A stretch of DNA of 64,000 nucleotides from Escherichia virus KFS-EC. Within the stretch, counting starts at the first letter, position 1; each line of letters starts with the position of its first letter. Position numbers and translations under genes: made by a program. The stretch lies in the sequence record MH560358, one strand, 5' to 3'. Positions 17 to 64,000 of the stretch are shown here, piece by piece. The notes beneath the pieces are model-generated. The model ran no database searches, had not been told where the DNA came from, and saw nothing but the letters and a program-made list of their open reading frames with translations.

Positions 17-2566
17 ATGTGGAGTAATACCGCAAACTATTTCGATGACCCGACCGCACGAAATCTTGATAAATTTGGGGCATTTCGTACTAATGATATG
101 GATGGTCATCTAGCACTTGCTTTGCATATTCCCCATCCTAGCGGTATAAATCATGCTCGTGGGTTTGATTTTACTTATGGTTCTAACGTTGTTCCTACTG
201 TAAAAACCTATGGTTATAACGCTGATGGTGTATTGGCATATTCATATCGCATGTATCACGAAGGTGATAAGCCTAGTCCGTCAGAATTAAATGTATACAG
301 CAAACAAGAAGTAGACCGGATGTTCCAGAAGACCATCAACTTTGGTGTAGAAACTGGATGGTTTAAAATTGCTACCGCCTTTATTCCGCAAAATGATGGA
401 CGTAGCTTGAAAATTAGATTGATTGGTGGAAGTGGGTGGAACGTAGGACAAACTGGACAATGTAATATTATTGAACTTGTTATAAGGACTAGCAACGGTT
501 CGCCTAAAGGAATTAACTTTGTTGCGTATCATCATGTTTCTGGTTACGAAAATCAATTTTGTGCCATTAATACAGGTGATGACACTTATGATATCTATGC
601 ATATTACTTCGAATTTACTAATATGGTAATGGCTGAATATCAAGCGTCCAGCGGTGTTAATTTAACTGTACTTGATCGACCTGAATATGTCGGCGAAAAA
701 CCTGTAGCTGATCATATCTATGATGCATATACAATATACTCCTTTAACAGTTTCAGTAACCGTGGAACGTTAAATTTTGCTGGAAACCCTCAAGGCCAAT
801 ATGACATTGAGCATTTGAACGTGCAACAAACTAACAGCAAAAAGATGTTGCGTCGCTTCCGTAGTTCTGGTCCTGCCACTATCTGGCATGAGACAGTTGA
901 TGATAACCAGTATCGTCTTGCTACTGGATACGAAGATACAAATCAGGAATTATTGCTGACAGCAACATCCGGGTTACATGTCAAGAAATTAACATTGGAT
1001 GGCGGTGTCACTGGAAATTCTGGTATTGATATTCGTCGAGGACCAAACGAATCAAGCCATTTTAATTTCATGGATTATCGCACTGGACAAGATGTTCGTA
1101 ATGGTTGGTTTGGTTTTGGTGATGGAACAACCAAAGATTTTATTTGGTGGAACGATAACGGTCAAAACTCTATAAACCTGATTGAAGACGGTGAATTACA
1201 TATTACTGGCGGTAGAGGCCAGAAAATTGTAATGAATAGCGAAGTTGCATTATCTGAAAATGCTCGTTTGGCTGTTAAAGGTGGCAATTATGGCTTAATT
1301 TTTAGAAATGATGGCGTTGGCTTCCATATTCTTACCACAGATCTCGGTGATTCATTTGGACCGTGGAATACTCGTAGACCATTCAGCTATGATTTTGCGG
1401 ACGGTGGATTGTATTTAGGTGGTACTGCAACCGCTCGTTGTTTGCATCTGGGAATTGATGGTAGCACTCGTCTCGAAGACAACCTTTTCTTTAAAGCTGG
1501 TTCTCGTCAATCTATGGACTATATGGAACTAGTCCATTGGGGGGCAAGCAATACAGGTCGAAATAACGTTTTAAGTCTTCGTGACTCAAAAGGATTTTTC
1601 GCAGAATTTGAACGATTGGGTGATGATACCATTAAAAACACCTTCTTCGGGAAACTTAAAGTTAATCGTGGTTCTGACGCAATCGTCATGAATGCCGAAA
1701 CGGGTGATTCGTCTATATATTTGCTGGGTACTTGTGCTGATAATAACAACTGGTATATCGGTAAAGGTGGTGCTGATAATGGATTAGCGTTCTATAGCTA
1801 TGCTACTAATGCTGCTATCAATATTACAAACGCTGGTGATATCGCGCTAAGTCCAAAAGGTGTCGAAATGACTCATGTCAATAACGTTCGATTCTATGTT
1901 CATGGTGAACGTTGGACTGCTAGCCAATCTGGAGGCTGGGGCGATCAATGGGGATTAGAAGCGCCGATATTTGTCGATCATGGTTATGTTGGACCAGATA
2001 GCTATTATCCAATTATTAAAGGAAGAAGTTTAATCACCAATCAAGGGTATACAACTGCCGTCGATTTTGGTCTTCGTCGTGTTCCTCAAAATTGGGGGCA
2101 AGCTATTATTCGTGTTGGATCTGCGGATGCATCGCCAGCGGCTGGTCATCCTCAAGCTGTATTCGAGTTCCATCATGATGGTACTTTCTATTCTCCTGGT
2201 AATGGTAACTTTAACGATGTTTATATTCGTTCCGATGGTCGTCTGAAAATTAATGTTGAAGATTACGAAGAAAATGCGGTGGATAAGGTAAATAAACTCA
2301 AAGTTAAAACCTACGATAAAGTTAAATCTCTTAATGACCGAGAAGTTATAGGTCATGAGATTGGTATTATCGCACAGGATTTACAAGAGGTATTACCGGA
2401 AGCTGTTAAAACCGCAAAAATTGGTGGTCTTGATAACCCAGAAGAAATTTTAACAATTTCAAACTCCGCAGTGAACGCGCTTTTAATTAAAGCGGTCCAA
2501 GAAATGAGCGAAGAAAATAAACTTCTTCGTGAACGTCTTGCTGCAATTGAAGCTAAATTAGGGTAA
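17..2566 (+). CDS. tail fiber protein, 3' portion (gp37-like long tail fiber distal subunit) with C-terminal intramolecular chaperone domain; 5' end lies outside the window
   Basis: 849-aa ORF open to window start; last ~130 aa (DKVKSLNDREVIGHEIGIIAQDLQEV... then coiled coil) fit the tail-fiber/endosialidase intramolecular chaperone pattern; sits just upstream of holin t as gene 37/38 does in T4. Confidence 0.6.
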   Translation: MWSNTANYFDDPTARNLDKFGAFRTNDMDGHLALALHIPHPSGINHARGFDFTYGSNVVPTVKTYGYNADGVLAYSYRMYHEGDKPSPSELNVYSKQEVDRMFQKTINFGVETGWFKIATAFIPQNDGRSLKIRLIGGSGWNVGQTGQCNIIELVIRTSNGSPKGINFVAYHHVSGYENQFCAINTGDDTYDIYAYYFEFTNMVMAEYQASSGVNLTVLDRPEYVGEKPVADHIYDAYTIYSFNSFSNRGTLNFAGNPQGQYDIEHLNVQQTNSKKMLRRFRSSGPATIWHETVDDNQYRLATGYEDTNQELLLTATSGLHVKKLTLDGGVTGNSGIDIRRGPNESSHFNFMDYRTGQDVRNGWFGFGDGTTKDFIWWNDNGQNSINLIEDGELHITGGRGQKIVMNSEVALSENARLAVKGGNYGLIFRNDGVGFHILTTDLGDSFGPWNTRRPFSYDFADGGLYLGGTATARCLHLGIDGSTRLEDNLFFKAGSRQSMDYMELVHWGASNTGRNNVLSLRDSKGFFAEFERLGDDTIKNTFFGKLKVNRGSDAIVMNAETGDSSIYLLGTCADNNNWYIGKGGADNGLAFYSYATNAAINITNAGDIALSPKGVEMTHVNNVRFYVHGERWTASQSGGWGDQWGLEAPIFVDHGYVGPDSYYPIIKGRSLITNQGYTTAVDFGLRRVPQNWGQAIIRVGSADASPAAGHPQAVFEFHHDGTFYSPGNGNFNDVYIRSDGRLKINVEDYEENAVDKVNKLKVKTYDKVKSLNDREVIGHEIGIIAQDLQEVLPEAVKTAKIGGLDNPEEILTISNSAVNALLIKAVQEMSEENKLLRERLAAIEAKLG

Positions 2567-2573
2567 TTGGAAA

Positions 2574-2591
2574 GCGGGGAGAAATCTCCGC
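2574..2591 (+). other. stem-loop (GNRA-type loop) just after tail fiber stop; no T-tract
   Basis: gcggggagaaatctccgc forms a 7-bp stem with GAAA loop 8 nt after the stop codon; not followed by a U-run, so probably an RNA stability/processing structure rather than a terminator. Confidence 0.3.
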
Positions 2592-2604
2592 TAAGGATTC
2601 TTAT

Positions 2605-2928
2605 ATGGGATATTGGGTAAGTAGTGAAATTAATACTAAAATCGATGCTTTAAAATGGCATGTATTTGATATTCCTAACGGCTATGGTACTGCTCGTGCT
2701 GGTGTCGCTGTAATGCGTCATAATGCTGGTGGTGGGTGGTCTGATGCACATATTAACGTAGATGGTTTGACCGTTGCTCGTCGTCGTGGTGGGACCAATT
2801 GGGGATCTACTATAAATTCGTTTGTTCCTGCTGGCTGCACCGTCTCCTTTGGTTTAGGGGGTGAAGGTGGTGACTCAGAATTGCTTTTGCATGGCTTTTG
2901 TGTGTCTGGAAGTCATAAGGGGTCATGA
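2605..2928 (+). CDS. hypothetical protein, Gly-rich, in the position gene 38 occupies in T-even phages
   Basis: 107-aa ORF with AAGGA 8 nt upstream of ATG; co-directional with tail fiber gene. Confidence 0.4.
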   Translation: MGYWVSSEINTKIDALKWHVFDIPNGYGTARAGVAVMRHNAGGGWSDAHINVDGLTVARRRGGTNWGSTINSFVPAGCTVSFGLGGEGGDSELLLHGFCVSGSHKGS

Positions 2929-3087
2929 TTGGGGACAGATCCATTCTTGTATTGTGCCGCAGGGAGTAACGATCACGGTAACTACAAACAGGGGTATTTC
3001 CCATCTTCGTTATAGACGCTTGAGCAACCGTTAAAAAAAGAATTAAGGAAAACTCCCAGGGAAGGGAACTACTAAGGAGAAACGGCT

Positions 3088-3306
3088 ATGGTCTATAATA
3101 TCGTCATTGGTGCTTTGTCTAATTTCGGAATGAAACTATTGTCAAAGTTAATTAGTGAAAAGATGCTCACTAAAATTTTCTTCTATTGCGCTCGTCGTCT
3201 TGCGGCTTATACCAATACGCCAATTGATGATCGTTTTGTGGAAGAACTTTATAAGGAGTTTAATAAAGATCAGTCAGAAGATAGCAACGAGCAAAATAAA
3301 AAATAG
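3088..3306 (+). CDS. hypothetical small protein
   Basis: 72-aa ORF with strong RBS (AAGGAG, 7 nt spacing). Confidence 0.45.
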   Translation: MVYNIVIGALSNFGMKLLSKLISEKMLTKIFFYCARRLAAYTNTPIDDRFVEELYKEFNKDQSEDSNEQNKK

Positions 3307-3361
3307 TGATAGTCAAGTACCTAAATAAGAGTACACTGTCATAGTTATCTTAGGGCATTAT

Positions 3362-4018
3362 ATGCAAGTTTCTGAAAAAGGGAAAGACTTTTCTATCTCA
3401 AATGTCCTGCGCGCTATTTTCACAACTAAAAGCACGGAGTTGCTCGTACTTCGTGTTTTTGCTGCCGTCGTGTTGTCCATATTAGCATTTGTCGTTTATA
3501 GTAAAAACGAGTTATTTGCGCTTTATAAAGAGACTCGTTATGAGACTTATGCTCACGTTCTCCAGGTAGAGAAAGACCGCAATTTTGATAATGCAGCACA
3601 GGAGCAGTTACAGATAGTTCATGTGTCGGCTGATGCCGATTTTTCTGCTGTTTTTAGTTTTCGTCCGAAAAACCTAAACTATTTTGTTGATTTGGTGGCA
3701 TATGAAGGAAAGTTACCGCATACAATCGATGAAAAAAATTTAGGCGGATTCCCTATCAATAAAACGAGTGAAGAATATCGTAGGCATCTTTTAGGTAAAT
3801 CCTATTTTACCGATAAAGATTTCCAGTATATTCCATCAAGAGAAAAGAAATTAGAGAGTATCGATATAGGGGTTATGTATTCTTGTCCTATATTCAATCT
3901 CGACAATGTCTATTCTGGTAGTATCTCCATTGCATGGAAGAATAAACCGGATATTGACATTGAGAATTTAGATACTCTTTGCAATCAATCTGCCAGAATC
4001 CTCGGAAGGATTAGATAA
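3362..4018 (+). CDS. t: holin (T4 t-type, class III holin)
   Basis: 218 aa, same length as T4 T; single N-proximal TM segment; extended identity to T4 holin (EQLQIVHVSADADFSAVFSFRPKNLNYFVDLVAYEGKLP, SCPIFNLDNVYSGSI, ARILGR). Confidence 0.92.
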   Translation: MQVSEKGKDFSISNVLRAIFTTKSTELLVLRVFAAVVLSILAFVVYSKNELFALYKETRYETYAHVLQVEKDRNFDNAAQEQLQIVHVSADADFSAVFSFRPKNLNYFVDLVAYEGKLPHTIDEKNLGGFPINKTSEEYRRHLLGKSYFTDKDFQYIPSREKKLESIDIGVMYSCPIFNLDNVYSGSISIAWKNKPDIDIENLDTLCNQSARILGRIR

Positions 4019-4024
4019 CTTAAA

Positions 4025-4056
4025 GGGGAAGCCTTTCGGCCTCCCCTTCTTTTTAT
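4025..4056. terminator. bidirectional rho-independent terminator between convergent late (plus) and early (minus) units
   Basis: ggggaagcc-tttc-ggcctcccc hairpin followed by ttctttttatt; sits between holin stop (4018) and end of minus-strand ORF (4053). Confidence 0.65.
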
Positions 4057-4301
4057 TGGCGCATAGAAGCCCCTGAATCACATTTTGACGCTGTATGATG
4101 AAAACAGGTAGCGTACCAGTCATCGGCTTGTTTGTCTTCGTCAGAAAACGCGTAATTGCGTTGTATGCCGTTTTCTACTTTGACCAGTGCAATAGCTGTT
4201 TCTGGAAGATCAATCAATCGGACAAAATCACCATCTTCCCACTCTACACGAGCAATATCATAGCCCATCTCAAAGTATACAATCGCTTGTTCTAATTTCA
4301 T
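4053..4301 (-). CDS. hypothetical protein (82 aa)
   Basis: ORF in track; start overlaps stop of upstream gene (4298); last gene of minus-strand unit before terminator. Confidence 0.5.
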   Translation of the reverse strand: MKLEQAIVYFEMGYDIARVEWEDGDFVRLIDLPETAIALVKVENGIQRNYAFSDEDKQADDWYATCFHHTASKCDSGASMRQ

Positions 4302-4627
4302 TCTGGAAACTTCCCGTAAACATTCTCTGCCAGCTTACGTGCATCTTTTACAATATCTTTCATATAATGACTATAATTTTTAGCTAGATCAATGATGCAA
4401 TCAACAAAGAAGTAATAGCGTCGCAGTGCTACCAGCTCAACATCTTCAAGATGACCATTTTCTCCAATCGCTGAAATATGTTTAAATTCCTTTCGGATCG
4501 CGTCCATCGCTACATTAACTTCTTTTATAATATCTTTCGTATTATATGCACCTCGACTAATCAAAATTTTGGTTAGGTCTTCTGCTTTTTCGTGAAAGTT
4601 GTCAATTTCAAACTCGATCATAATCAC
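4298..4627 (-). CDS. hypothetical protein, paralog of 4736..5068
   Basis: 109-aa ORF; C-terminal ...KDIVKDARKLAENVYGKF resembles ...TKIVDEARIMTENIFGKF of the neighbouring gene. Confidence 0.5.
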   Translation of the reverse strand: MIMIEFEIDNFHEKAEDLTKILISRGAYNTKDIIKEVNVAMDAIRKEFKHISAIGENGHLEDVELVALRRYYFFVDCIIDLAKNYSHYMKDIVKDARKLAENVYGKFPE

Positions 4628-12377: not shown

Positions 12378-14486
12378 TTAAAATTTAACATTCTTAACCA
12401 GTTTCATAAAGTCTTGTGCGCGTTTGTCATTATGCAGAATACGATACCAGTTATCTACAATATCATACAGTAACGGGCTATTCTCTTTAAACTTCGCACA
12501 AACTGCTTTAATTCGTTCGTTTGCTACCGTGAATTTTTCATCACAAATCTTTTTAGTTTCTTCGTCCATAATCCAACGAGTACGAAGGAGTAACTTGGAA
12601 ACCTCTTTATTATAATGACGACCGTACAGTCTGTCAATAAATTCTGGAACACAGCGTTCTAGTTCATCGTCATGAAACAACATAGTGATCACACCCAGAT
12701 ATTCGCCATACCCCAGATGATTGGTCTTAACCTTCTTAGCCAGACCAGCCAGCTTACCGCAAACAAATTCTAGCGCACATTCCAATTGTTCGTCAACGAG
12801 ATATTTTTGTGTCTCGTTTCGAGTAATAATATACTTTGTTACCCCGAAGTAGTCAAGCGCCGTGTGTAATGTATTTTCACTATGGATCGATTTACGACTA
12901 CGGCTTTCGAATGCATCACCTACGCGGAACATGTGCAAGCCTGATAACTCGCGAATCTCTGCCGCTTTCATGTGATGGCTGGTTTTATGCCAATTGTCAC
13001 CAATCTTTTCCATAATATACACGTTAGGCAGCTTGGGAGTAGCTTCACGTTGTGTACGCTCGGTCTTTTCCGGTTTAACTGCTTTAGCACGCAGATCATC
13101 GGCCTCAGACACTTTAATCACGGTCATTTCAGAATCATCATAATACTGTTTGATGTACTCGAAAGTCTCCATATGTTTTTCGTTGTTCTGACGGAACACC
13201 AGTACCTTTTTATTGATTCCGTATTCCTGGACCATGCCGTTAAGAGTCAGTGCACGCAGTTTCGGTTTATCTGTATCATCAATAAGACACGTAATATCTT
13301 CTTTATGCATCCATACAAAATGCGTAATGTTGTATTGACTGCTAACGAAAGCAGGGCGCAATTTACTGATTGTGTGACGAGTACGATACAGAGTATACAC
13401 CTGACCTTCTACGTCATTTGGCGAATCTTTACCAGCATTCACAAACTTATTATAGATTGCTACCGGATCATCCCACTGACCGATCTTACCCATCTTGCTA
13501 ATAATATTGCGTTGCGTCGATGAATACTCGCTCATAAATTGAGCAAGTTTACGCTCTGTTTTAATGTTGGCGATCTTTTCTTTAACCTTTTCCAACATCA
13601 TTTCATTGATTTCTGCAATGCGTTTTTCGATGTTCGCTTTAGTCTCAATTGACAAGTGAACTTCTTCACGCGATGGCATAAGGTCCAGATCACCCAACTC
13701 AAAATTAATGTAAATGGTCTGGTGCTGGCGGTTTACAGCTTCTAACCATGTTCCGCGAACATATTCATACGGGATCGGATACTGGATCTTACCCATGATT
13801 GCATATACTACATAGGAATCGTTATCACGCCCATTACAAACATAATAATTATCAAAGCTAGGGAAATAATTAATTTCGATTGCATTGATATTAGGTTTGT
13901 GTTCCCCAAAATGACGCAGTACAAATTGCGCTTCTCGATGCCATGTCTGAATGTCTTTTTCTTTCACCGGAATAGTGATTTTCAGACCATTGTCTTCATA
14001 GGTCGGTTCGTCGAAAATCTGCACCATTTTCGGCATCGAGTTTTGCACAAATGCCGTAAAGCCATAAGCGCGACCATTGTAATAGTTTACGATTGTAAAG
14101 GTGTCGGTATAGCTATAAGCAGATTTCGCACCTAAACCAAAAGATCCGATATAATCATTAGTCTGGTCTTTTGTTGATTCAAAGTAAACCGTAAACAGTT
14201 GTTCTAATTCTTTCTTAGACGGAATACCAGTACCATAATCACGCACAGAAAAATACGGTTCGATTGCAGTCGGTAAATGAATATCAAACGGACGATCTAA
14301 GGTTCCGGCTTCTTTGTGAGTGTCGGTAGCATTGCACGAATACTCACGGACGCAAGCACGCTCACAATATTGATAAGTGTTCTTAGAAAGCACCATAAAA
14401 GCCTTGCTACTTGCTTTCAGTGAAAAATCAACCGCACCGCTCAAGTCACTGCCAAATACTTCTTCATTATCAATATGCATTTTCAT
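12378..14486 (-). CDS. rIIA: rIIA protein (GHKL-type ATPase domain)
   Basis: 702 aa (T4 725); N-terminal histidine-kinase-like ATPase motifs (DYGTGIP, GSFGLGAKSAY); adjacent to rIIB in T4 order; RBS GAGGA. Confidence 0.92.
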   Translation of the reverse strand: MKMHIDNEEVFGSDLSGAVDFSLKASSKAFMVLSKNTYQYCERACVREYSCNATDTHKEAGTLDRPFDIHLPTAIEPYFSVRDYGTGIPSKKELEQLFTVYFESTKDQTNDYIGSFGLGAKSAYSYTDTFTIVNYYNGRAYGFTAFVQNSMPKMVQIFDEPTYEDNGLKITIPVKEKDIQTWHREAQFVLRHFGEHKPNINAIEINYFPSFDNYYVCNGRDNDSYVVYAIMGKIQYPIPYEYVRGTWLEAVNRQHQTIYINFELGDLDLMPSREEVHLSIETKANIEKRIAEINEMMLEKVKEKIANIKTERKLAQFMSEYSSTQRNIISKMGKIGQWDDPVAIYNKFVNAGKDSPNDVEGQVYTLYRTRHTISKLRPAFVSSQYNITHFVWMHKEDITCLIDDTDKPKLRALTLNGMVQEYGINKKVLVFRQNNEKHMETFEYIKQYYDDSEMTVIKVSEADDLRAKAVKPEKTERTQREATPKLPNVYIMEKIGDNWHKTSHHMKAAEIRELSGLHMFRVGDAFESRSRKSIHSENTLHTALDYFGVTKYIITRNETQKYLVDEQLECALEFVCGKLAGLAKKVKTNHLGYGEYLGVITMLFHDDELERCVPEFIDRLYGRHYNKEVSKLLLRTRWIMDEETKKICDEKFTVANERIKAVCAKFKENSPLLYDIVDNWYRILHNDKRAQDFMKLVKNVKF

Positions 14487-14500
14487 AATATAATCCTCAC

Positions 14501-14758
14501 TTAATTAAAATCTTCTTTGTCCATCTCTGCGTAGATTACATCCCACGCCCATAAATCAATAAACGCATTATATGTCACGGTGCAATCGTTGTCAATCACT
14601 TCTTTCGCATATTTCTTGATGTTTTCGTAGGAAACTTGCGGATCAATTTTGTGTTTACGAAGGTGTGCATATTCATACCTCAAACATTTCATAAACAGGT
14701 CCATCGATTTCTTTTCTCGATGACACTTGGCGATCAGAAAATCAAAACTTCGACTCAT
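14501..14758 (-). CDS. hypothetical protein (rIIA.1 position)
   Basis: 85-aa ORF directly upstream of rIIA. Confidence 0.5.
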   Translation of the reverse strand: MSRSFDFLIAKCHREKKSMDLFMKCLRYEYAHLRKHKIDPQVSYENIKKYAKEVIDNDCTVTYNAFIDLWAWDVIYAEMDKEDFN

Positions 14759-14768
14759 TTTCTACTCC

Positions 14769-14963
14769 TTATACATTTTCAATCACCCATTGCAGATGGG
14801 CTTCTGCGTCAACCAGTTCAGCGCGGCTTTTCTCTAAACACTTGCTGTATTCTTTACGTTCCCAATCAGCAATTTCGTTTTTCAGGACTTCTTCATAGTA
14901 AGCAATTACGCCTTTCAGGTCTGAAACTTTACGGCTTGCCAGTTCGATGTAATGGTTACGCAT
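14769..14963 (-). CDS. hypothetical small protein
   Basis: 64-aa ORF. Confidence 0.4.
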   Translation of the reverse strand: MRNHYIELASRKVSDLKGVIAYYEEVLKNEIADWERKEYSKCLEKSRAELVDAEAHLQWVIENV

Positions 14964-15159
14964 TTTGATTCTCCTTTGTTACTAGATAACGAATTTGGTC
15001 TTGCATTGCGATCAGTTCCCAGCGTGCTACTTTCATCATGGAAACCGACTCTTTGAACATAATATTAGCTTTTTCCTTATTCCCTGTCAAGTAGATTTCT
15101 GCAATTTTTTCACAAAATTTTTGAGTTTCTTCATTCTTAAACGGTTTCATATAAGTCAA
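14956..15159 (-). CDS. hypothetical small protein
   Basis: 67-aa ORF; first codon in track is TTG, true start may be ATG at 15150. Confidence 0.4.
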   Translation of the reverse strand: MTYMKPFKNEETQKFCEKIAEIYLTGNKEKANIMFKESVSMMKVARWELIAMQDQIRYLVTKENQNA

Positions 15160-21291: not shown

Positions 21292-21795
21292 TTAAATTAA
21301 AGAAAATTTGTAAATCTCTATCAGATCGCCATTACACGCGTAAACTTCCTCGATCTCATCAAGGATCATGGTCGTCCCTGTCTTGTATATGCACTCGCGC
21401 TCATCTGCCAACATAGCATACAAAGACAGTCGAGTAGTTGGATTGTCATACTCTTTAGACACCACTCGGTCAATAGCATGTTCGTAATAATTCATGCAAG
21501 GCTTGGTAGGTTTTATTGCAATAATCTTTCCTGTTGCATAAACATCGGTTGCAAAGTCCTCTGCTGTTGATTGCAGTGGCGTAAAGCTCATAGGACGCTC
21601 TACAACGAAAGAATCACCCACAATTAAGGTATCCAGCTTACGGCCTTCTCTTTTGCTCACACCGCGATACAAGGCTTCATGATGCACTAACCGCTCAGTC
21701 TTTTCGATCAATCCATTAAGGATCGACATATCGATATTTTCTTTAGAGTTCATCACTTCATCAATGATGTTAAGTTCTTCTGGTGTAAATTGCAT
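21292..21795 (-). CDS. ADP-ribosyltransferase, ModA/ModB-like (R-S-E class)
   Basis: 167 aa; motifs in order YRG, STAED (S-T-S-like) and ERE; located between dda and gene 56 as modA/modB in T4. Confidence 0.55.
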   Translation of the reverse strand: MQFTPEELNIIDEVMNSKENIDMSILNGLIEKTERLVHHEALYRGVSKREGRKLDTLIVGDSFVVERPMSFTPLQSTAEDFATDVYATGKIIAIKPTKPCMNYYEHAIDRVVSKEYDNPTTRLSLYAMLADERECIYKTGTTMILDEIEEVYACNGDLIEIYKFSLI

Positions 21796-21864: not shown

Positions 21865-22383
21865 TTAGTAGCCGCGTTCTTGACGGGCGAAGTTTTCAGC
21901 ATTTTTCAGATAGTACAGCTTGAAGATATCCTTAGCGGTTAAACCTAAGCCCAGCATTTTAATCAGCACAAAATGCCAGATATCGATCAATTCCATCGAA
22001 ATTTCGGTTTTATCGTCATCTGACAGGTCAGCAAATTTACGCGATCGTGCTTCGCCGTGGTTTTTCTTCCACACTTTAGTAATTGCGCTTGCATCTTTGC
22101 CATTTGACATGCCACCCAGGGCAACATAAAGTTCTCGTGTCTCGTCGTCGATTGCGTCATCCCACAACTTCATCCAGTCAAGGATTTCTCCACAAGTTTC
22201 CAGCTTATCAGGATGCGGCACCCACTCAAATTTATCAGCTAGTGCGACCTGTAATCCTTTTTGCATATCTAACATTACTTGCAGCGGATCTTTGCCGCTA
22301 GTGATTGCCTCGGAATACGCAATACCAGCTTTAGACATAGTTTCATCATTAACAAGACCAGCACAAGAATTAAATTCACTCAT
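21865..22383 (-). CDS. 56: dCTP pyrophosphatase (MazG-like), gp56 homolog
   Basis: 172 aa from ATG 22383 (T4 gp56 171 aa); MazG-type EExxE motifs (ELIDIWHF); longer track ORF starts upstream. Confidence 0.8.
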   Translation of the reverse strand: MSEFNSCAGLVNDETMSKAGIAYSEAITSGKDPLQVMLDMQKGLQVALADKFEWVPHPDKLETCGEILDWMKLWDDAIDDETRELYVALGGMSNGKDASAITKVWKKNHGEARSRKFADLSDDDKTEISMELIDIWHFVLIKMLGLGLTAKDIFKLYYLKNAENFARQERGY

Positions 22384-22393
22384 AATAAACCTC

Positions 22394-22957
22394 TCAAATA
22401 ACATTAAACACTGCAAATTCACCGTGATACTTATACGCATAGTCATTATATACTATTGCGGCGTCTATTTCTAGGTCAAATTGTCCTATATAGACTTTAT
22501 TTCCTTCATTGTCCCTTATCTGGGCGACCCATTTACCCGAACGACTATTATAATGCACTCCTTTAAAATTGCTAGTTTTAGTTTGGTTATTTCTTCTCAT
22601 ATTTTGGGTATTCTGTTTTTGTGTCGCCTCTCTTAAGTTTGGAGGGTCGTTGTTTTCTGGATTCCCGTCAATATGGTCAATGACAGGTGGGCAATACCCA
22701 TGCTCTAAGAAGAATACTATTCTATGCACAAGCTCAAAATATTGTTTTCCTTCAAAAGAAAACGAGACTTTTAGGTGTCCGGCTGTGACTTTAGATACCT
22801 TTACTATATCACCAACCTTATAAAACTGGCCTTCTTTCGTCGTTCGGCTTGCTTTGCTGTTTGTTTTATGAATCAATATACCACTTTCGTGTCTATATCT
22901 TCGACGTATTTCATCCTTTAGTTCATCGCTCCATTCTTTGGCTTTCCTTACCCTCAC
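22394..22957 (-). mobile_element. free-standing homing endonuclease gene, HNH nuclease plus AP2 DNA-binding domain
   Basis: 187 aa; HNH core IDHIDGNPENNDPPNLREATQKQN; AP2-like FKGVHYNSRSGKWVAQI...YIGQF; GTG start with GAGGG RBS; inserted between genes 56 and 61. Confidence 0.75.
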
Positions 22958-22974
22958 AATACAACCCTCATTAA

Positions 22975-60531: not shown

Positions 60532-61128
60532 TTAGTTGGTAGTGCCATCAATAAAATGTTTACGGCACACAGAAACATATTTATCCTCTGCACCAACTTC
60601 GATTTGAGCACCATCGCGAATAACATTACCCTCTTTATCTACACGAAGGACCATTGTTGCTTTCTTGCCACAATGACAAATACCCTTCATTTCGACCAGT
60701 TTATCAGCAAATGCCATCAATGCCGCAGATCCTTCAAATAGATTGCCCTGAAAGTCAGTGCGAAGGCCATAGCACAGTACAGGGATATTTGCATCATCAA
60801 CAAGCGCACACAAGCCTAAAACATGCTCTTTAGTCATAAATTGGGCTTCATCTACAAATACAGCATCAGGACGCCAGCGATCTGGTCTACGCTTACCTAA
60901 CGATTCACGATAAACCAAGTCGAAAAGATCATCCGATTCAGTGAAGGTGATCGCTGGAGCACTTAGACCAATTCGGGAAACAACTTCACTTTCTGAATCT
61001 CGATTATCAATCGCTGGCTTAAGAATTAATACTCGCATATCACGTTCGGTATAGTTATAAGCACTTTGTAACAGAGAAGTTGATTTGCCAGCGTTCATAG
61101 ATGCATAGTAGAAATATAATTGCGCCAT
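60532..61128 (-). CDS. tk: thymidine kinase
   Basis: 198 aa (T4 193); P-loop MNAGKST, VDEAQF, C-terminal zinc-binding CHCG...C. Confidence 0.92.
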   Translation of the reverse strand: MAQLYFYYASMNAGKSTSLLQSAYNYTERDMRVLILKPAIDNRDSESEVVSRIGLSAPAITFTESDDLFDLVYRESLGKRRPDRWRPDAVFVDEAQFMTKEHVLGLCALVDDANIPVLCYGLRTDFQGNLFEGSAALMAFADKLVEMKGICHCGKKATMVLRVDKEGNVIRDGAQIEVGAEDKYVSVCRKHFIDGTTN

Positions 61129-61421
61129 TAATTAATCTCCAAAAATCCAGCAAGACCTAAACCGATATAAGTCCAGATACCAATAAAAAAGATGTTAATG
61201 CTCATGGCAAGGATAAACCCTTTTAGCGTTTTAGGATATCCAACCCAATATTCCAGACCATCTTCTAACCGGATCAGTTTATTGCCCTGAGAGTCCATAT
61301 CGACTACAACATGTTTATTTCGAGATTGCAATAGATATTGTTTTACAATCTCTACACCCGCCATAATAACAATAACGAAAATAAAAGTCCACACAACAAG
61401 ATTAATGATAGTCTCAAGCAT
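61128..61421 (-). CDS. hypothetical membrane protein
   Basis: 97 aa with N- and C-terminal TM segments; stop overlaps tk start. Confidence 0.5.
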   Translation of the reverse strand: MLETIINLVVWTFIFVIVIMAGVEIVKQYLLQSRNKHVVVDMDSQGNKLIRLEDGLEYWVGYPKTLKGFILAMSINIFFIGIWTYIGLGLAGFLEIN

Positions 61422-61656
61422 TTTCTATCACCTCCACCCAATCAGGTGTTTCCTGAAAGACTCCTTCACCTTCATGATGGTCGCAACCTTTATTGCTGCA
61501 ATACATCCACCAATCCCACATTCCCCACGGTAAACGCTGCATATCGTCGTTACAGCAAGTGAAGATGATAGGCCAACCACATCTACCACAACGGCAGTTT
61601 TCCTTCATGTGAGCGGTATTAGGCTTCTTCATAGATGACTCCAATATAATCGACAT
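61414..61656 (-). CDS. hypothetical Cys/Trp-rich protein
   Basis: 80-aa ORF; CRCGRCGW and CSNKGCDHH clusters. Confidence 0.45.
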   Translation of the reverse strand: MSIILESSMKKPNTAHMKENCRCGRCGWPIIFTCCNDDMQRLPWGMWDWWMYCSNKGCDHHEGEGVFQETPDWVEVIENA

Positions 61657-61859
61657 TTACATTTAGGGCAATGCGGTTCTTTAATATAATACCCGTCTGT
61701 CTTTGGAACACTAACAGGAGCGGTTTTTATATTGTATTCAATGAAACAACGAAAACAAGTTACGTTTTCTACAGACTGACGTTTCACCCAATCACCGGAA
61801 TATAGATCATTTTTATTTGTCATATTCAACCACCACAATGTTAATGTCTGGAGTAGCAA
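61629..61859 (-). CDS. hypothetical zinc-ribbon protein
   Basis: 76-aa ORF; CFRC...CPKCKC. Confidence 0.45.
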   Translation of the reverse strand: MLLQTLTLWWLNMTNKNDLYSGDWVKRQSVENVTCFRCFIEYNIKTAPVSVPKTDGYYIKEPHCPKCKCRLYWSHL

Positions 61860-62268
61860 TATTAATGATCTCTTCTACACATTCCCACTCAAGGCCACCG
61901 ATACCGCAACCGATTTTAGGAATATAGAAAGGCTGTATAGCACCCTCAAAAACATCATTGAGAGACTCAAATCCTTTCAGGATAGCACCATATTCAGCAT
62001 TTGGACCCGGTCGGAATTGGGTATAGAGATTCACCCCGCACCAGTTATAACCATTAACTTGATGCGTCCAGACACTAAACCCACCCAGCTTTTCGACCTT
62101 ACCGCGAGAAGTTTGCTTGTCAATCTCTAACGCTTGCGGGAACTCTTTCGCGATCTTCGCAGCAATACCAGCGCCCATAGTATGAAAACAATTACAACCA
62201 TGAATTAAATGACCGTTTCCTTGTTTAAACAGGGCGATGAGATCGCCCTTTACAGTATCAATAATCAT
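61813..62268 (-). CDS. macro-domain protein (ADP-ribose binding/processing)
   Basis: 151 aa; HGCNC...MGAGIA...G.....GG matches the macro-domain N-terminal signature. Confidence 0.6.
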   Translation of the reverse strand: MIIDTVKGDLIALFKQGNGHLIHGCNCFHTMGAGIAAKIAKEFPQALEIDKQTSRGKVEKLGGFSVWTHQVNGYNWCGVNLYTQFRPGPNAEYGAILKGFESLNDVFEGAIQPFYIPKIGCGIGGLEWECVEEIINIATPDINIVVVEYDK

Positions 62269-62283
62269 AATATAAACCTCACA

Positions 62284-62643
62284 TTAGTCACGGGAAGACA
62301 ACCCAGCCATAAAACGGCTTAACAGTGTGTCGCGATAAGCAAAGCATAATTGCTTATCAGGGGCAGTATCACACAGGTTACGTTTTGTTTTAGCAAAGCT
62401 GGCAATACTCAGATCCCACGCTCGATTTTTTCGTTTTTCGTCTCGACCTTGTTTGTATGCTTCATCAAGTTCGAGCGCGATAAAATCACTACACATGTTA
62501 TCATCATCACAGAAAGTTTTAATGATCTTTTTGTTGATCTCAAATCCTTTGTATTCGAACTTTGGATAAGGGCGCTCATTACTAGCAAGCGCACCAGCAG
62601 AGAACATCATAGCAATCATAGCAATTATTGTCAACTTTTTCAT
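62284..62643 (-). CDS. secreted/periplasmic hypothetical protein
   Basis: 119 aa; signal peptide MKKLTIIAMIAMMFSAGALA; four Cys. Confidence 0.5.
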   Translation of the reverse strand: MKKLTIIAMIAMMFSAGALASNERPYPKFEYKGFEINKKIIKTFCDDDNMCSDFIALELDEAYKQGRDEKRKNRAWDLSIASFAKTKRNLCDTAPDKQLCFAYRDTLLSRFMAGLSSRD

Positions 62644-62650
62644 ATATTCC

Positions 62651-63241
62651 TCAATAGCGTTTAGTCTTAAGAATGCCTTTACTCTTTAGATGGTTAGCCT
62701 TTTTTAGTACGTCATCAGCATAACCTAATCCGGCTTTATAGTTCCATCCAGCATTGTAAGAAGCTAGCGCGAGTCTGATATTACCGTTTCGAATATCCAG
62801 CCAGTATGCTAACTCATCCATCGCGTAGAATGCAGAAACCTCGCGATTCATGATAAAGTTGATAGTCTGGCGATCACTCATTTTAACACCGCGCTTTGCA
62901 TTTTTCGCTTTCACCGTTTTAAGGTAATTTTGAAATAATCCATAAGCATGATGATTTTTCTTTGGTGCTAAGTTTGCACCCGCGCTTGATTCTTGCCATG
63001 CGATACCCGCCAGGATGTGACCTAAACCCTTTCCGTTATAGCGAATATTCGGATGGTACTTTTTCAACTTACCGCTTTTCTCGAATTGCTCGCCGTATTG
63101 ATAGGCGAAATGTAAATTATCTAGTTGGTGTGCTGTAAAGTTGTCTATCGGCGCTTTTTTGATCGGTGCGCTAGTCGATGCGTGTGTAGCACCAACGGCT
63201 AGTGACAGACTCAATACTATCGCTTTTAGAACTTTTAACAT
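62651..63241 (-). CDS. secreted lytic transglycosylase (SLT domain)
   Basis: 196 aa; signal peptide MLKVLKAIVLSLSLAVGATHA; SLT motifs GIAWQESS, GLFQ, AYNAG. Confidence 0.7.
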   Translation of the reverse strand: MLKVLKAIVLSLSLAVGATHASTSAPIKKAPIDNFTAHQLDNLHFAYQYGEQFEKSGKLKKYHPNIRYNGKGLGHILAGIAWQESSAGANLAPKKNHHAYGLFQNYLKTVKAKNAKRGVKMSDRQTINFIMNREVSAFYAMDELAYWLDIRNGNIRLALASYNAGWNYKAGLGYADDVLKKANHLKSKGILKTKRY

Positions 63242-63326
63242 TAATTTCTCCTGTTTGGCTTAACTTTCTGATTCCATAATATAGCCCTATCACCAGAAAG
63301 TCAAGCATTAATTTAACCAATTTCCA

Positions 63327-63749
63327 TTATTGGTCTACCTTCAAAACAACAGCCGACATTTTACCCGCCAGTCGTTTTGGATTCTCTATAATCATTCGGC
63401 AGCATAGACCGTGATATGGCTTACCATCTTCGATTAGATCTACTGTCATCCCGATCCACATGTTACCGTCAGTAATTTCTAATCGATTAGGTCGGTCTTC
63501 CATTTTCAGGAAGTCGAAGATCTCCGGCAAACGAGTTTCTATCTTATTGAATAGTTCCATTGTCTTATGTTCATCGATATGACGATCGGTTAGACGGTCG
63601 ATCATATGCGGACTAAAGCGAATGAAAATATACTCACCATAACCATCATTCAAGCACTTTTCTTTGATCTGCGCATTGGTTTTGCGCATTTCGGTTTCGA
63701 AGAATCTACGCAGCTTACTACGGCGAACATGTACGTTAATTGTTTCCAT
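63327..63749 (-). CDS. regB: site-specific RNA endonuclease RegB
   Basis: 140 aa from ATG 63749; VRRSKLRRFFE near N-terminus and RLEITDGNMW...CRM...RL.GK block resemble T4 RegB as recalled; T4 order tk-(vs)-regB. Confidence 0.65.
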   Translation of the reverse strand: METINVHVRRSKLRRFFETEMRKTNAQIKEKCLNDGYGEYIFIRFSPHMIDRLTDRHIDEHKTMELFNKIETRLPEIFDFLKMEDRPNRLEITDGNMWIGMTVDLIEDGKPYHGLCCRMIIENPKRLAGKMSAVVLKVDQ

Positions 63750-63753
63750 TTTA

Positions 63754-63981
63754 TTATCCTTTCTTAAACAAATTGCGAAGCCAGTATACAAACGGGATTT
63801 CTTTAAACTTGAATTTCTCTATAGTTAATTCTTTAGTAGCAAGATGAATACCATAAGCATCATGTGTCACGATATGCCATTTTCTATAGTCCAAATGTGA
63901 ACAACCGTCTGGATCTAGGTTAATAAGAGTTTCTCGCTCACTAGGATTATTTTTCCACAATTTTGTAATAGGATCGCACAT
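63754..63981 (-). CDS. hypothetical small protein
   Basis: 75-aa ORF, start close to window edge. Confidence 0.4.
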   Translation of the reverse strand: MCDPITKLWKNNPSERETLINLDPDGCSHLDYRKWHIVTHDAYGIHLATKELTIEKFKFKEIPFVYWLRNLFKKG

Positions 63982-64000
63982 AATTCGACCTAGCGTACCA

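Follow-up and report, generated by a model that had tools for sequence, protein, structure and literature searches.

A Gln-type macrodomain encoded by a Krischvirus, an ortholog of T4 Tk.4 (AdfM) and probable antagonist of DarT2

Introduction

Hydrolysis of thymidine-linked ADP-ribose (dT-ADPr) is known for the macrodomain proteins SCO6735, DarG, TARG1 and PhiKZ AdfM. In bacteriophage T4, tk.4 was the single significant match when a transposon library was grown on a DarTG2 host (HIDEN-SEQ), and a clean deletion of the gene rendered the phage sensitive specifically to DarTG2, upon which tk.4 was renamed adfM; on E. coli K-12 the gene is dispensable unless DarTG2 is present (bioRxiv 10.1101/2025.11.20.689424). 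These genetic data, reported in a preprint, were collected at 30 °C in minimal medium, and the removal of ADP-ribose from DNA by Tk.4 is a proposal of the same study (bioRxiv 10.1101/2025.11.20.689424). Earlier work had indicated that T4-like phages resist DarTG2 through a factor other than AdfA and AdfN (PMC11257639).

Biochemical evidence has been given for gp104 (AdfM) of phage PhiKZ, which takes the DarT2-added ADP-ribose off a TNTC oligonucleotide and whose activity is lowered by the N23A exchange (PMC13309987, Cell Rep 2026). SCO6735 of Streptomyces coelicolor (PDB 5e3b), an accepted member of the ALC1-like/TARG1-like class described by Rack et al. (PMC7050489), has neither the catalytic Lys, in whose place it carries Gln85, nor the Asp; the Q85A variant is inactive and N27S nearly so, and His24 is conserved but its mutation was uninformative (PMC9411070). 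The enzyme removes ADP-ribose from thymidine in DNA and confers protection against DarT, and the catalytically dead Q85A variant still inhibits DarT by interaction (PMC9411070). SCO6735 is the one studied enzyme behind the Gln-type mechanism, which was derived from molecular dynamics (MD) simulations.

Here we describe a 151-residue macrodomain protein encoded in a 64,000-nucleotide stretch of phage DNA (MH560358), the whole of which is referred to as the window.

Results

Source of the DNA and organization of the locus

Positions 61000-63300 of the window were 100% identical to Shigella phage Sf20 and 99.8% identical to Krischvirus RB49, which bears out the phage origin assumed in the first-pass annotation; the source DNA is that of a Krischvirus (RB49/Sf20), an RB49-like T4-type phage. 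The same segment was present in one place, over at least 80% of its length, in 56 RB49-like records, nearly all of them at 95% identity or above, and positions 62500-64000 were 99.5% identical to Sf20. Positions 1-1500, which simple coordinate mapping would place in the Sf20 region 47000-90000, gave no blastn match to that region (E ≤ 1e-20), so that collinearity or identity with Sf20 does not extend over the entire window. The Sf20 position predicted for this end is near the distal long-tail-fibre gene. Elsewhere in the window, a 588-bp segment at 22378-22965, between a dCTPase-like gene and the primase gene, carries a 187-aa ORF (22394..22957, minus strand) that resembles, as judged by eye, an HNH/AP2-type homing endonuclease. 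The corresponding interval of phage GEC-3S measures only about 11 bp, and the comparison suggests a mobile endonuclease insertion, variable among Krischviruses.

The ORF of the macrodomain protein runs on the minus strand from an ATG at 62268 to a stop at 61813, with a gap of 15 nt between the vs stop codon and its start (Table 1). It belongs to a block of minus-strand genes that reads regB, vs.1, vs, tk.4 ortholog, three small ORFs, tk. The order tk...tk.4-vs-vs.1-regB is common to T4, JSE, GEC-3S and Sf20, the full T4 order being tk, tk.1-3, tk.4, vs, vs.1, regB. Two small zinc-binding ORFs occupy the place of T4 tk.1-tk.3, directly 3' of the tk.4 ortholog, and the one at 61629-61823 overlaps its stop by 11 nt. 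In T4, vs was the most strongly depleted gene in minimal medium in the HIDEN-SEQ preprint (bioRxiv 10.1101/2025.11.20.689424); taken together with the tk.4 phenotype, this places two conditionally important genes in one small block.

Table 1. Features of the macrodomain locus, in coordinates of the window, and key residues of the protein
Feature	Position	Strand	Description	Basis
tk.4/adfM ortholog	61813..62268	(-)	151-aa standalone macrodomain, TARG1/ALC1-like class	
Key residues of the 61813..62268 product	D9, H23, N26, loop 31-36, D50		loop 31-36 is MGAGIA	
Further key residues of the same product	N80-L-Y-T-Q84; P117-K-I-G-C-G-I-G-G125		the second is a loop	
Shine-Dalgarno sequence	62277..62280	(-)	GAGG, 8 nt 5' of the tk.4 ATG	sequence read directly
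vs stop codon	62284-62286	(-)	TAA	sequence read directly
vs	62284..62643	(-)	valyl-tRNA synthetase modifier; upstream neighbour, synteny marker	PHROG 1256, E=2e-33, and annotations
vs.1	62651..63241	(-)	SLT lytic-transglycosylase domain; first gene after the promoter, synteny marker	Pfam SLT; PHROG 600
Putative sigma-70/early-type promoter	63276..63304	(-)	TTGACT, 17 nt, TATTAT; between regB and vs.1	consensus scan
tk	60532..61128	(-)	thymidine kinase; downstream end of the conserved tk...tk.4 block	
Small ORF	61414-61656	(-)	'Phage zinc binding domain'	Pfam PF23895, E=9e-34
Small ORF	61629-61823	(-)	'Phage zinc binding domain'	Pfam PF23903, E=6e-23

The sigma-70 consensus scan returned 14 sites, with 10.5 expected. 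The promoter-like site between regB and vs.1 coincides with an annotated promoter of phage GEC-3S (51865-51893) and probably marks the start of a vs.1-vs-tk.4-...-tk transcription unit. Because of this coincidence the tk.4 ortholog, as a member of that unit, is probably transcribed early. The top consensus match of the region was found at 62606-62634 on the minus strand (TTGACA, 17 nt, TATGAT, with an extended -10 TG; 11 of 12 positions), within the vs ORF as annotated (62284..62643), at its 5' end. The site may be a chance match, or it may serve as an internal promoter from which tk.4 is expressed independently of vs.1 and vs. A scan for terminators gave three weak matches, where 2.4 were expected by chance, and none was usable.

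Fold and class of the protein

The macrodomain signature recognized in the first-pass annotation was located in the protein as H23-G-C-N-C27, M31-G-A-G-I-A36 and G-C-G-I-G-G at residues 120-125. Profile searches confirmed the assignment: Pfam Macro (PF01661) matched with 29.9 bits, above its gathering cut-off of 22, with residues 22-135 covering the entire profile (1-118 of 118), and PHROG 335 matched with E=6e-63. An AlphaFold2 model, computed from a 96-sequence homolog alignment, had a mean pLDDT of 97.5 and a pTM of 0.91. It is a compact alpha/beta domain with five helices and has the three-layer alpha/beta/alpha architecture of the macro fold. When the model was compared to the PDB with Foldseek, the top matches were TARG1 (E=4e-11, TM 0.76-0.82), Poa1p and the DarG macrodomains of M. 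tuberculosis and T. aquaticus. On account of these matches we assign the modelled protein to the ALC1-like/TARG1-like class of PMC7050489. Its minimal domain, free of extensions and with five helices, is that of this class, and its nearest structural relatives are TARG1, DarG and SCO6735, not MacroD, PARG or viral macrodomains. A role in the regulation of RNase III was considered and rejected; the label is a legacy PDB/COG name carried over from YmdB, which is of the MacroD type, whereas the present protein is of the TARG1 class.

The similarity to DarG was restricted to the macro part. The PADLOC DarG profile matched with E=9e-15 and 53 bits over positions 3-141 of 329, and the NCBIfam model antitoxin_DarG (NF048014) with E=2e-13 over positions 2-141 of 338, at 50.5 bits compared to an equivalog cut-off of 250. 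Relative to the DarG macrodomains of M. tuberculosis (5m3i), T. aquaticus (5m31/5m3e) and T. africanus DarTG (7omu), the phage protein is devoid of the C-terminal DarT-binding domain. No darT was found beside the gene, its neighbours being vs and the small zinc-binding ORFs. We therefore classify the protein as antitoxin-like and not as a DarG, given its domain content and gene neighbourhood. PhiKZ gp104 is closer to DarG, scoring 133 bits with the same PADLOC profile compared to the 53 bits found here, and T4 Tk.4 scored lower, at 36 bits.

A glutamine at the position of the catalytic lysine

In place of the classical dyad of human TARG1/OARD1 (4j5r), Lys84 and Asp125, the phage protein has Gln84 and Gly124. 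Gln84 aligned with TARG1 K84 in the profile alignment and with M. tuberculosis DarG K80 (with a chain index offset by 10), and Gly124 aligned with TARG1 Asp125. SCO6735, itself an accepted class member, shows this arrangement as well, and we therefore regard Gln84/Gly124 as the marker of a subtype and not as grounds for exclusion from the ALC1-like class.

A profile match to the 5e3b chain of SCO6735 was obtained with E=5e-14. Both proteins are standalone minimal macrodomains with no cognate DarT, both have Gln in place of the catalytic Lys and a His-x-x-Asn motif (H23/N26 here, H24/N27 in SCO6735), and neither has an Asp at the position of TARG1 D125. The equivalence of H23/N26/Q84 with H24/N27/Q85 was drawn indirectly, through TARG1 K84 and DarG K80, the statement in the SCO6735 paper and the consistent numbering. 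The two proteins differ in that SCO6735 belongs to the cell, with a housekeeping or antitoxin-like function, and is not phage-encoded, and in their identity of about 23%. The phage protein probably lacks the DNA-positioning lysines K34 and K89 of SCO6735, their correspondence having been derived from the numbering offset; position 33 is Ala in the phage protein and Lys in M. tuberculosis DarG and BT1257. The first-pass annotation had made its reading depend on a macro-like fold and on the presence of the catalytic residues. The fold is macro-like and counterparts of SCO6735 Asn27, Gln85 and His24 are in place, whereas the classical catalytic Lys is replaced by Gln84. A Gln-type active site is unusual but already documented.

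Residue conservation was read from an HMM alignment of 258 family members. Asn26 and Asn80 were invariant (258/258 each), Asp50 and Tyr82 were each conserved in 257/258 sequences, Gln84 in 254/258 and His23 in 248/258, and T4 Tk.4 has identical residues at all of these positions. Outside the family, position 84 is Lys in TARG1, M. tuberculosis DarG and PhiKZ gp104 and Gln in BT1257. Position 50 is Tyr in M. tuberculosis DarG, PhiKZ AdfM and BT1257 and falls in a gap in TARG1, and position 82 is Pro or Ile in these proteins. Judged from the alignments, D50 and Y82 are near-invariant residues specific to the Tk.4 family.

The same comparison divides the proteins that carry the name AdfM. PhiKZ gp104 resembles the present protein as a standalone phage macrodomain directed against DarTG2, and its conserved Asn N23 corresponds to N26 here; it differs by its 26% identity, its Lys-type active site with an FPTK motif and its import into the phage nucleus. 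By their active-site residues, T4-type AdfM proteins are classed as Gln-type, and PhiKZ AdfM and DarG (whose catalytic Lys80 is the counterpart of Gln84) as Lys-type. The name AdfM thus covers two subgroups of the class.

Relationship to T4 Tk.4 and the ADP-ribose genes of the phage

In a BLASTP comparison, residues 1-150 of the protein aligned with residues 1-152 of T4 Tk.4 (E=3e-45, 44% identity). No other macro ORF was found in the 64-kb window, the tk.4 ortholog being the sole match. The full-length identity, the single macro ORF and the conserved gene order lead us to assign the 151-aa protein as the syntenic ortholog of T4 Tk.4. The two proteins are of similar length (151 and 155 aa), their genes share the order regB-vs.1-vs-tk.4-...-tk, and both have the motifs HGCNCFHTMG(A/S)G, D50, NLYTQF-PGPN and P-x-IG-x-GIG as well as Gln at the catalytic position; they differ by a sequence divergence of 56%.

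The window was also searched for other anti-DarT and ADP-ribose enzymes, using T4 AdfN (30.3), AdfA (61.2), Alt, ModA and ModB as queries in tblastn and in phmmer --max against 289 ORFs of at least 50 aa. Only a ModB-like ORF and the Tk.4 ortholog were recovered. The former, at 21292..21795 on the minus strand, had been described in the first-pass annotation as ModA-like; the Mod type holds (PHROG 832, E=1e-20), but the protein is nearer to ModB (phmmer E=6.6e-10) than to ModA (E=2.3e-4). The window, in which the primase gene that precedes 61.2 in T4 is present, gave no homolog of T4 61.2 (AdfA).

Beyond the window, Sf20 encodes an annotated NADAR protein similar to T4 30.3 (AdfN, anti-DarTG1), gp83 (14679-15158 of its region), and two annotated Alt-like ADP-ribosyltransferases, gp54 (1306-2130) and gp55 (2565-4334). 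Since a NADAR homolog of T4 30.3/AdfN is encoded in the same phage genome, the T4 pairing of a guanine eraser (NADAR) with a thymine eraser (macrodomain) seems to be conserved in RB49-type phages. Sf20 also has, outside the window, a homolog of T4 57B (gp266, 13487-13951 of its region). T4 57B is the anti-CBASS factor Acb1 according to the HIDEN-SEQ preprint (bioRxiv 10.1101/2025.11.20.689424).

Distribution and existing annotation

Matches were detected by tblastn in 2,733 of 50,697 phage records, with hosts or groups comprising Escherichia, Klebsiella, Salmonella, Pseudomonas, Vibrio, Acinetobacter, Aeromonas and cyanophage. A family profile retrieved 18,251 cluster representatives when the threshold was set to E≤1e-3, falling to 1,363 at E≤1e-30; most are standalone and about 150 aa long. 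The nearest relatives outside Krischvirus were from Vequintavirus phages of E. coli (67-68% identity), above the T4-like syntenic orthologs (44-52%). Because the Vequintavirus homologs have another gene neighbourhood and are yet nearer than the syntenic T4-like orthologs, the comparison suggests that the macrodomain gene has been exchanged horizontally between phage families that share hosts. In Vequintavirus JLBYU08 the homolog lies at 3001-3459 of the examined region, in a differing neighbourhood where it adjoins SSB genes. A close cellular homolog was considered as a possible DarG antitoxin and discarded; the one case examined, a Pelagimonas protein, is standalone among housekeeping genes, without DarT.

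Both the family and its published function are already known, and the gene is already annotated: Sf20 gp232 is listed in GenBank as 'contains macro domain; similar to phage T4 Tk.4', and the records of JSE, Phi1 and GEC-3S label the gene 'tk.4, phosphatase, contains A1pp motif'. The common 'phosphatase' label on PHROG 335 is probably wrong.

Discussion

The protein is likely to be an early, standalone, Gln-type dT-ADPr DNA glycohydrolase, the Krischvirus ortholog of tk.4 (adfM), that neutralises DarT2. The first-pass annotation had proposed that the protein counters an ADP-ribosylating defence toxin of the host, and orthology to T4 Tk.4, whose knock-out sensitises the phage to DarTG2, lends this support. 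An orphan antitoxin-like macrodomain would be made early, from the sigma-70-type promoter 5' of vs.1. On thymidine in single-stranded phage DNA, the ADP-ribose mark is placed by DarT2, the toxin of the host's toxin-antitoxin defence DarTG2, and the macrodomain would hydrolyse the N-glycosidic bond between the two in the phage ssDNA; with the mark removed, phage DNA replication could go ahead. In the active site, Asn26 would hold Gln84, Gln84 would position the distal ribose, and the chemistry would be done by a substrate-positioned water. Since Gln84 replaces the classical catalytic Lys, the activity is modelled on SCO6735 and not on DarG. By analogy with its relatives, the 61813..62268 protein probably shares their substrate and role, and early expression is presumed for it as well.

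DarT2-modified DNA may also be too narrow a description of the substrate. The protein could be a broader nucleic-acid de-ADP-ribosylase that acts, besides or instead of DNA, on RNA with uridine-linked or phosphate-end-linked ADP-ribose, in answer to other ART-based RNA-targeting defences, or it could neutralise DarT2 in part by binding. Uridine-linked ADP-ribose (U-ADPr) on ssRNA is hydrolysed by TARG1, by DarG and, in particular, by the Gln-type SCO6735, the dead SCO6735 Q85A variant still inhibits DarT by interaction, and the near-invariant D50 and Y82 are the family's own, absent from DarG, TARG1, BT1257 and PhiKZ AdfM. We nevertheless consider this reading unlikely: the literature searched yielded no ART with uridine of bacterial RNA as its target in the course of a phage infection, binding of DarT2 is disfavoured by the missing dedicated DarT-binding domain of DarG, and DNA repair alone explains the T4 phenotype. 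The related proposal for the family as a whole, that Tk.4 proteins form a distinct phage-borne TARG1-class lineage, defined by Gln84 with D50 and Y82, with substrates beyond DarT2-modified DNA (e.g. uridine-ADP-ribosylated RNA or the products of other nucleic-acid ADP-ribosylating defences), would similarly have to be called a long shot. If it were true, the wider substrate range would explain the retention of the gene in thousands of phages of many families.

The legacy names with 'phosphatase, A1pp motif', the structural similarity to yeast Poa1p (6lfq) and the argument of Iyer et al. favour an enzyme of small molecules, either an ADP-ribose-1''-phosphate phosphatase like Poa1p or an O-acetyl-ADP-ribose deacetylase, which would clear NAD-derived metabolites or defence signals (Thoeris-type cyclic ADPR isomers) and take no part in DNA repair. 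We hold this to be quite improbable, as the sole phenotype of the T4 ortholog is DarTG2-specific and the macrodomains active on base-linked ADPr are those of the TARG1 class. Poa1p, by contrast, dephosphorylates a small molecule. In addition, none of the Sf20 genome regions examined has an annotated enzyme of the Tpt1/KptA type, which would supply Appr>p or Appr-1''-p, and 'A1pp phosphatase' is a carried-over domain name.

The other role raised in the first-pass annotation, tuning or reversal of the ADP-ribosylation of host proteins by the phage's own ModB-like (21292..21795) and two Alt-like transferases, found no support and appears very improbable indeed. The phage does encode Mod- and Alt-type ARTs, but their T4 counterparts Alt, ModA and ModB act specifically on arginine. 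ADP-ribose on Glu/Asp of proteins is also removed by TARG1 and SCO6735 (PMC9411070, PMC7050489), but cleavage of arginine-ADP-ribose is assigned to ARH1, with macrodomain hydrolases listed for other substrates only (PMC7050489). Moreover, tk.4 is unlinked to mod and alt, with about 40 kb of the window between it and the Mod gene, and T4 can do without its tk.4 on K-12 if DarTG2 is absent. Homologs of the macro protein are also present in phage groups such as Vequintavirus that are not known to carry Alt or Mod enzymes.

With DarT2 antagonism as the preferred reading, we propose to replace 'phosphatase' as the label of PHROG 335 by 'anti-DarT2 macrodomain (AdfM/Tk.4-like), predicted dT-ADPr DNA glycohydrolase'. 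Two mechanistic subtypes now stand under the one name AdfM, which may be of interest to enzymologists. The protein adds one more well-supported case to the orphan antitoxin-like phage enzymes that erase DNA ADP-ribosylation, and RB49-type phages appear to be equipped like T4, guanine being dealt with by an AdfN-like NADAR protein and thymine by an AdfM-like macrodomain.
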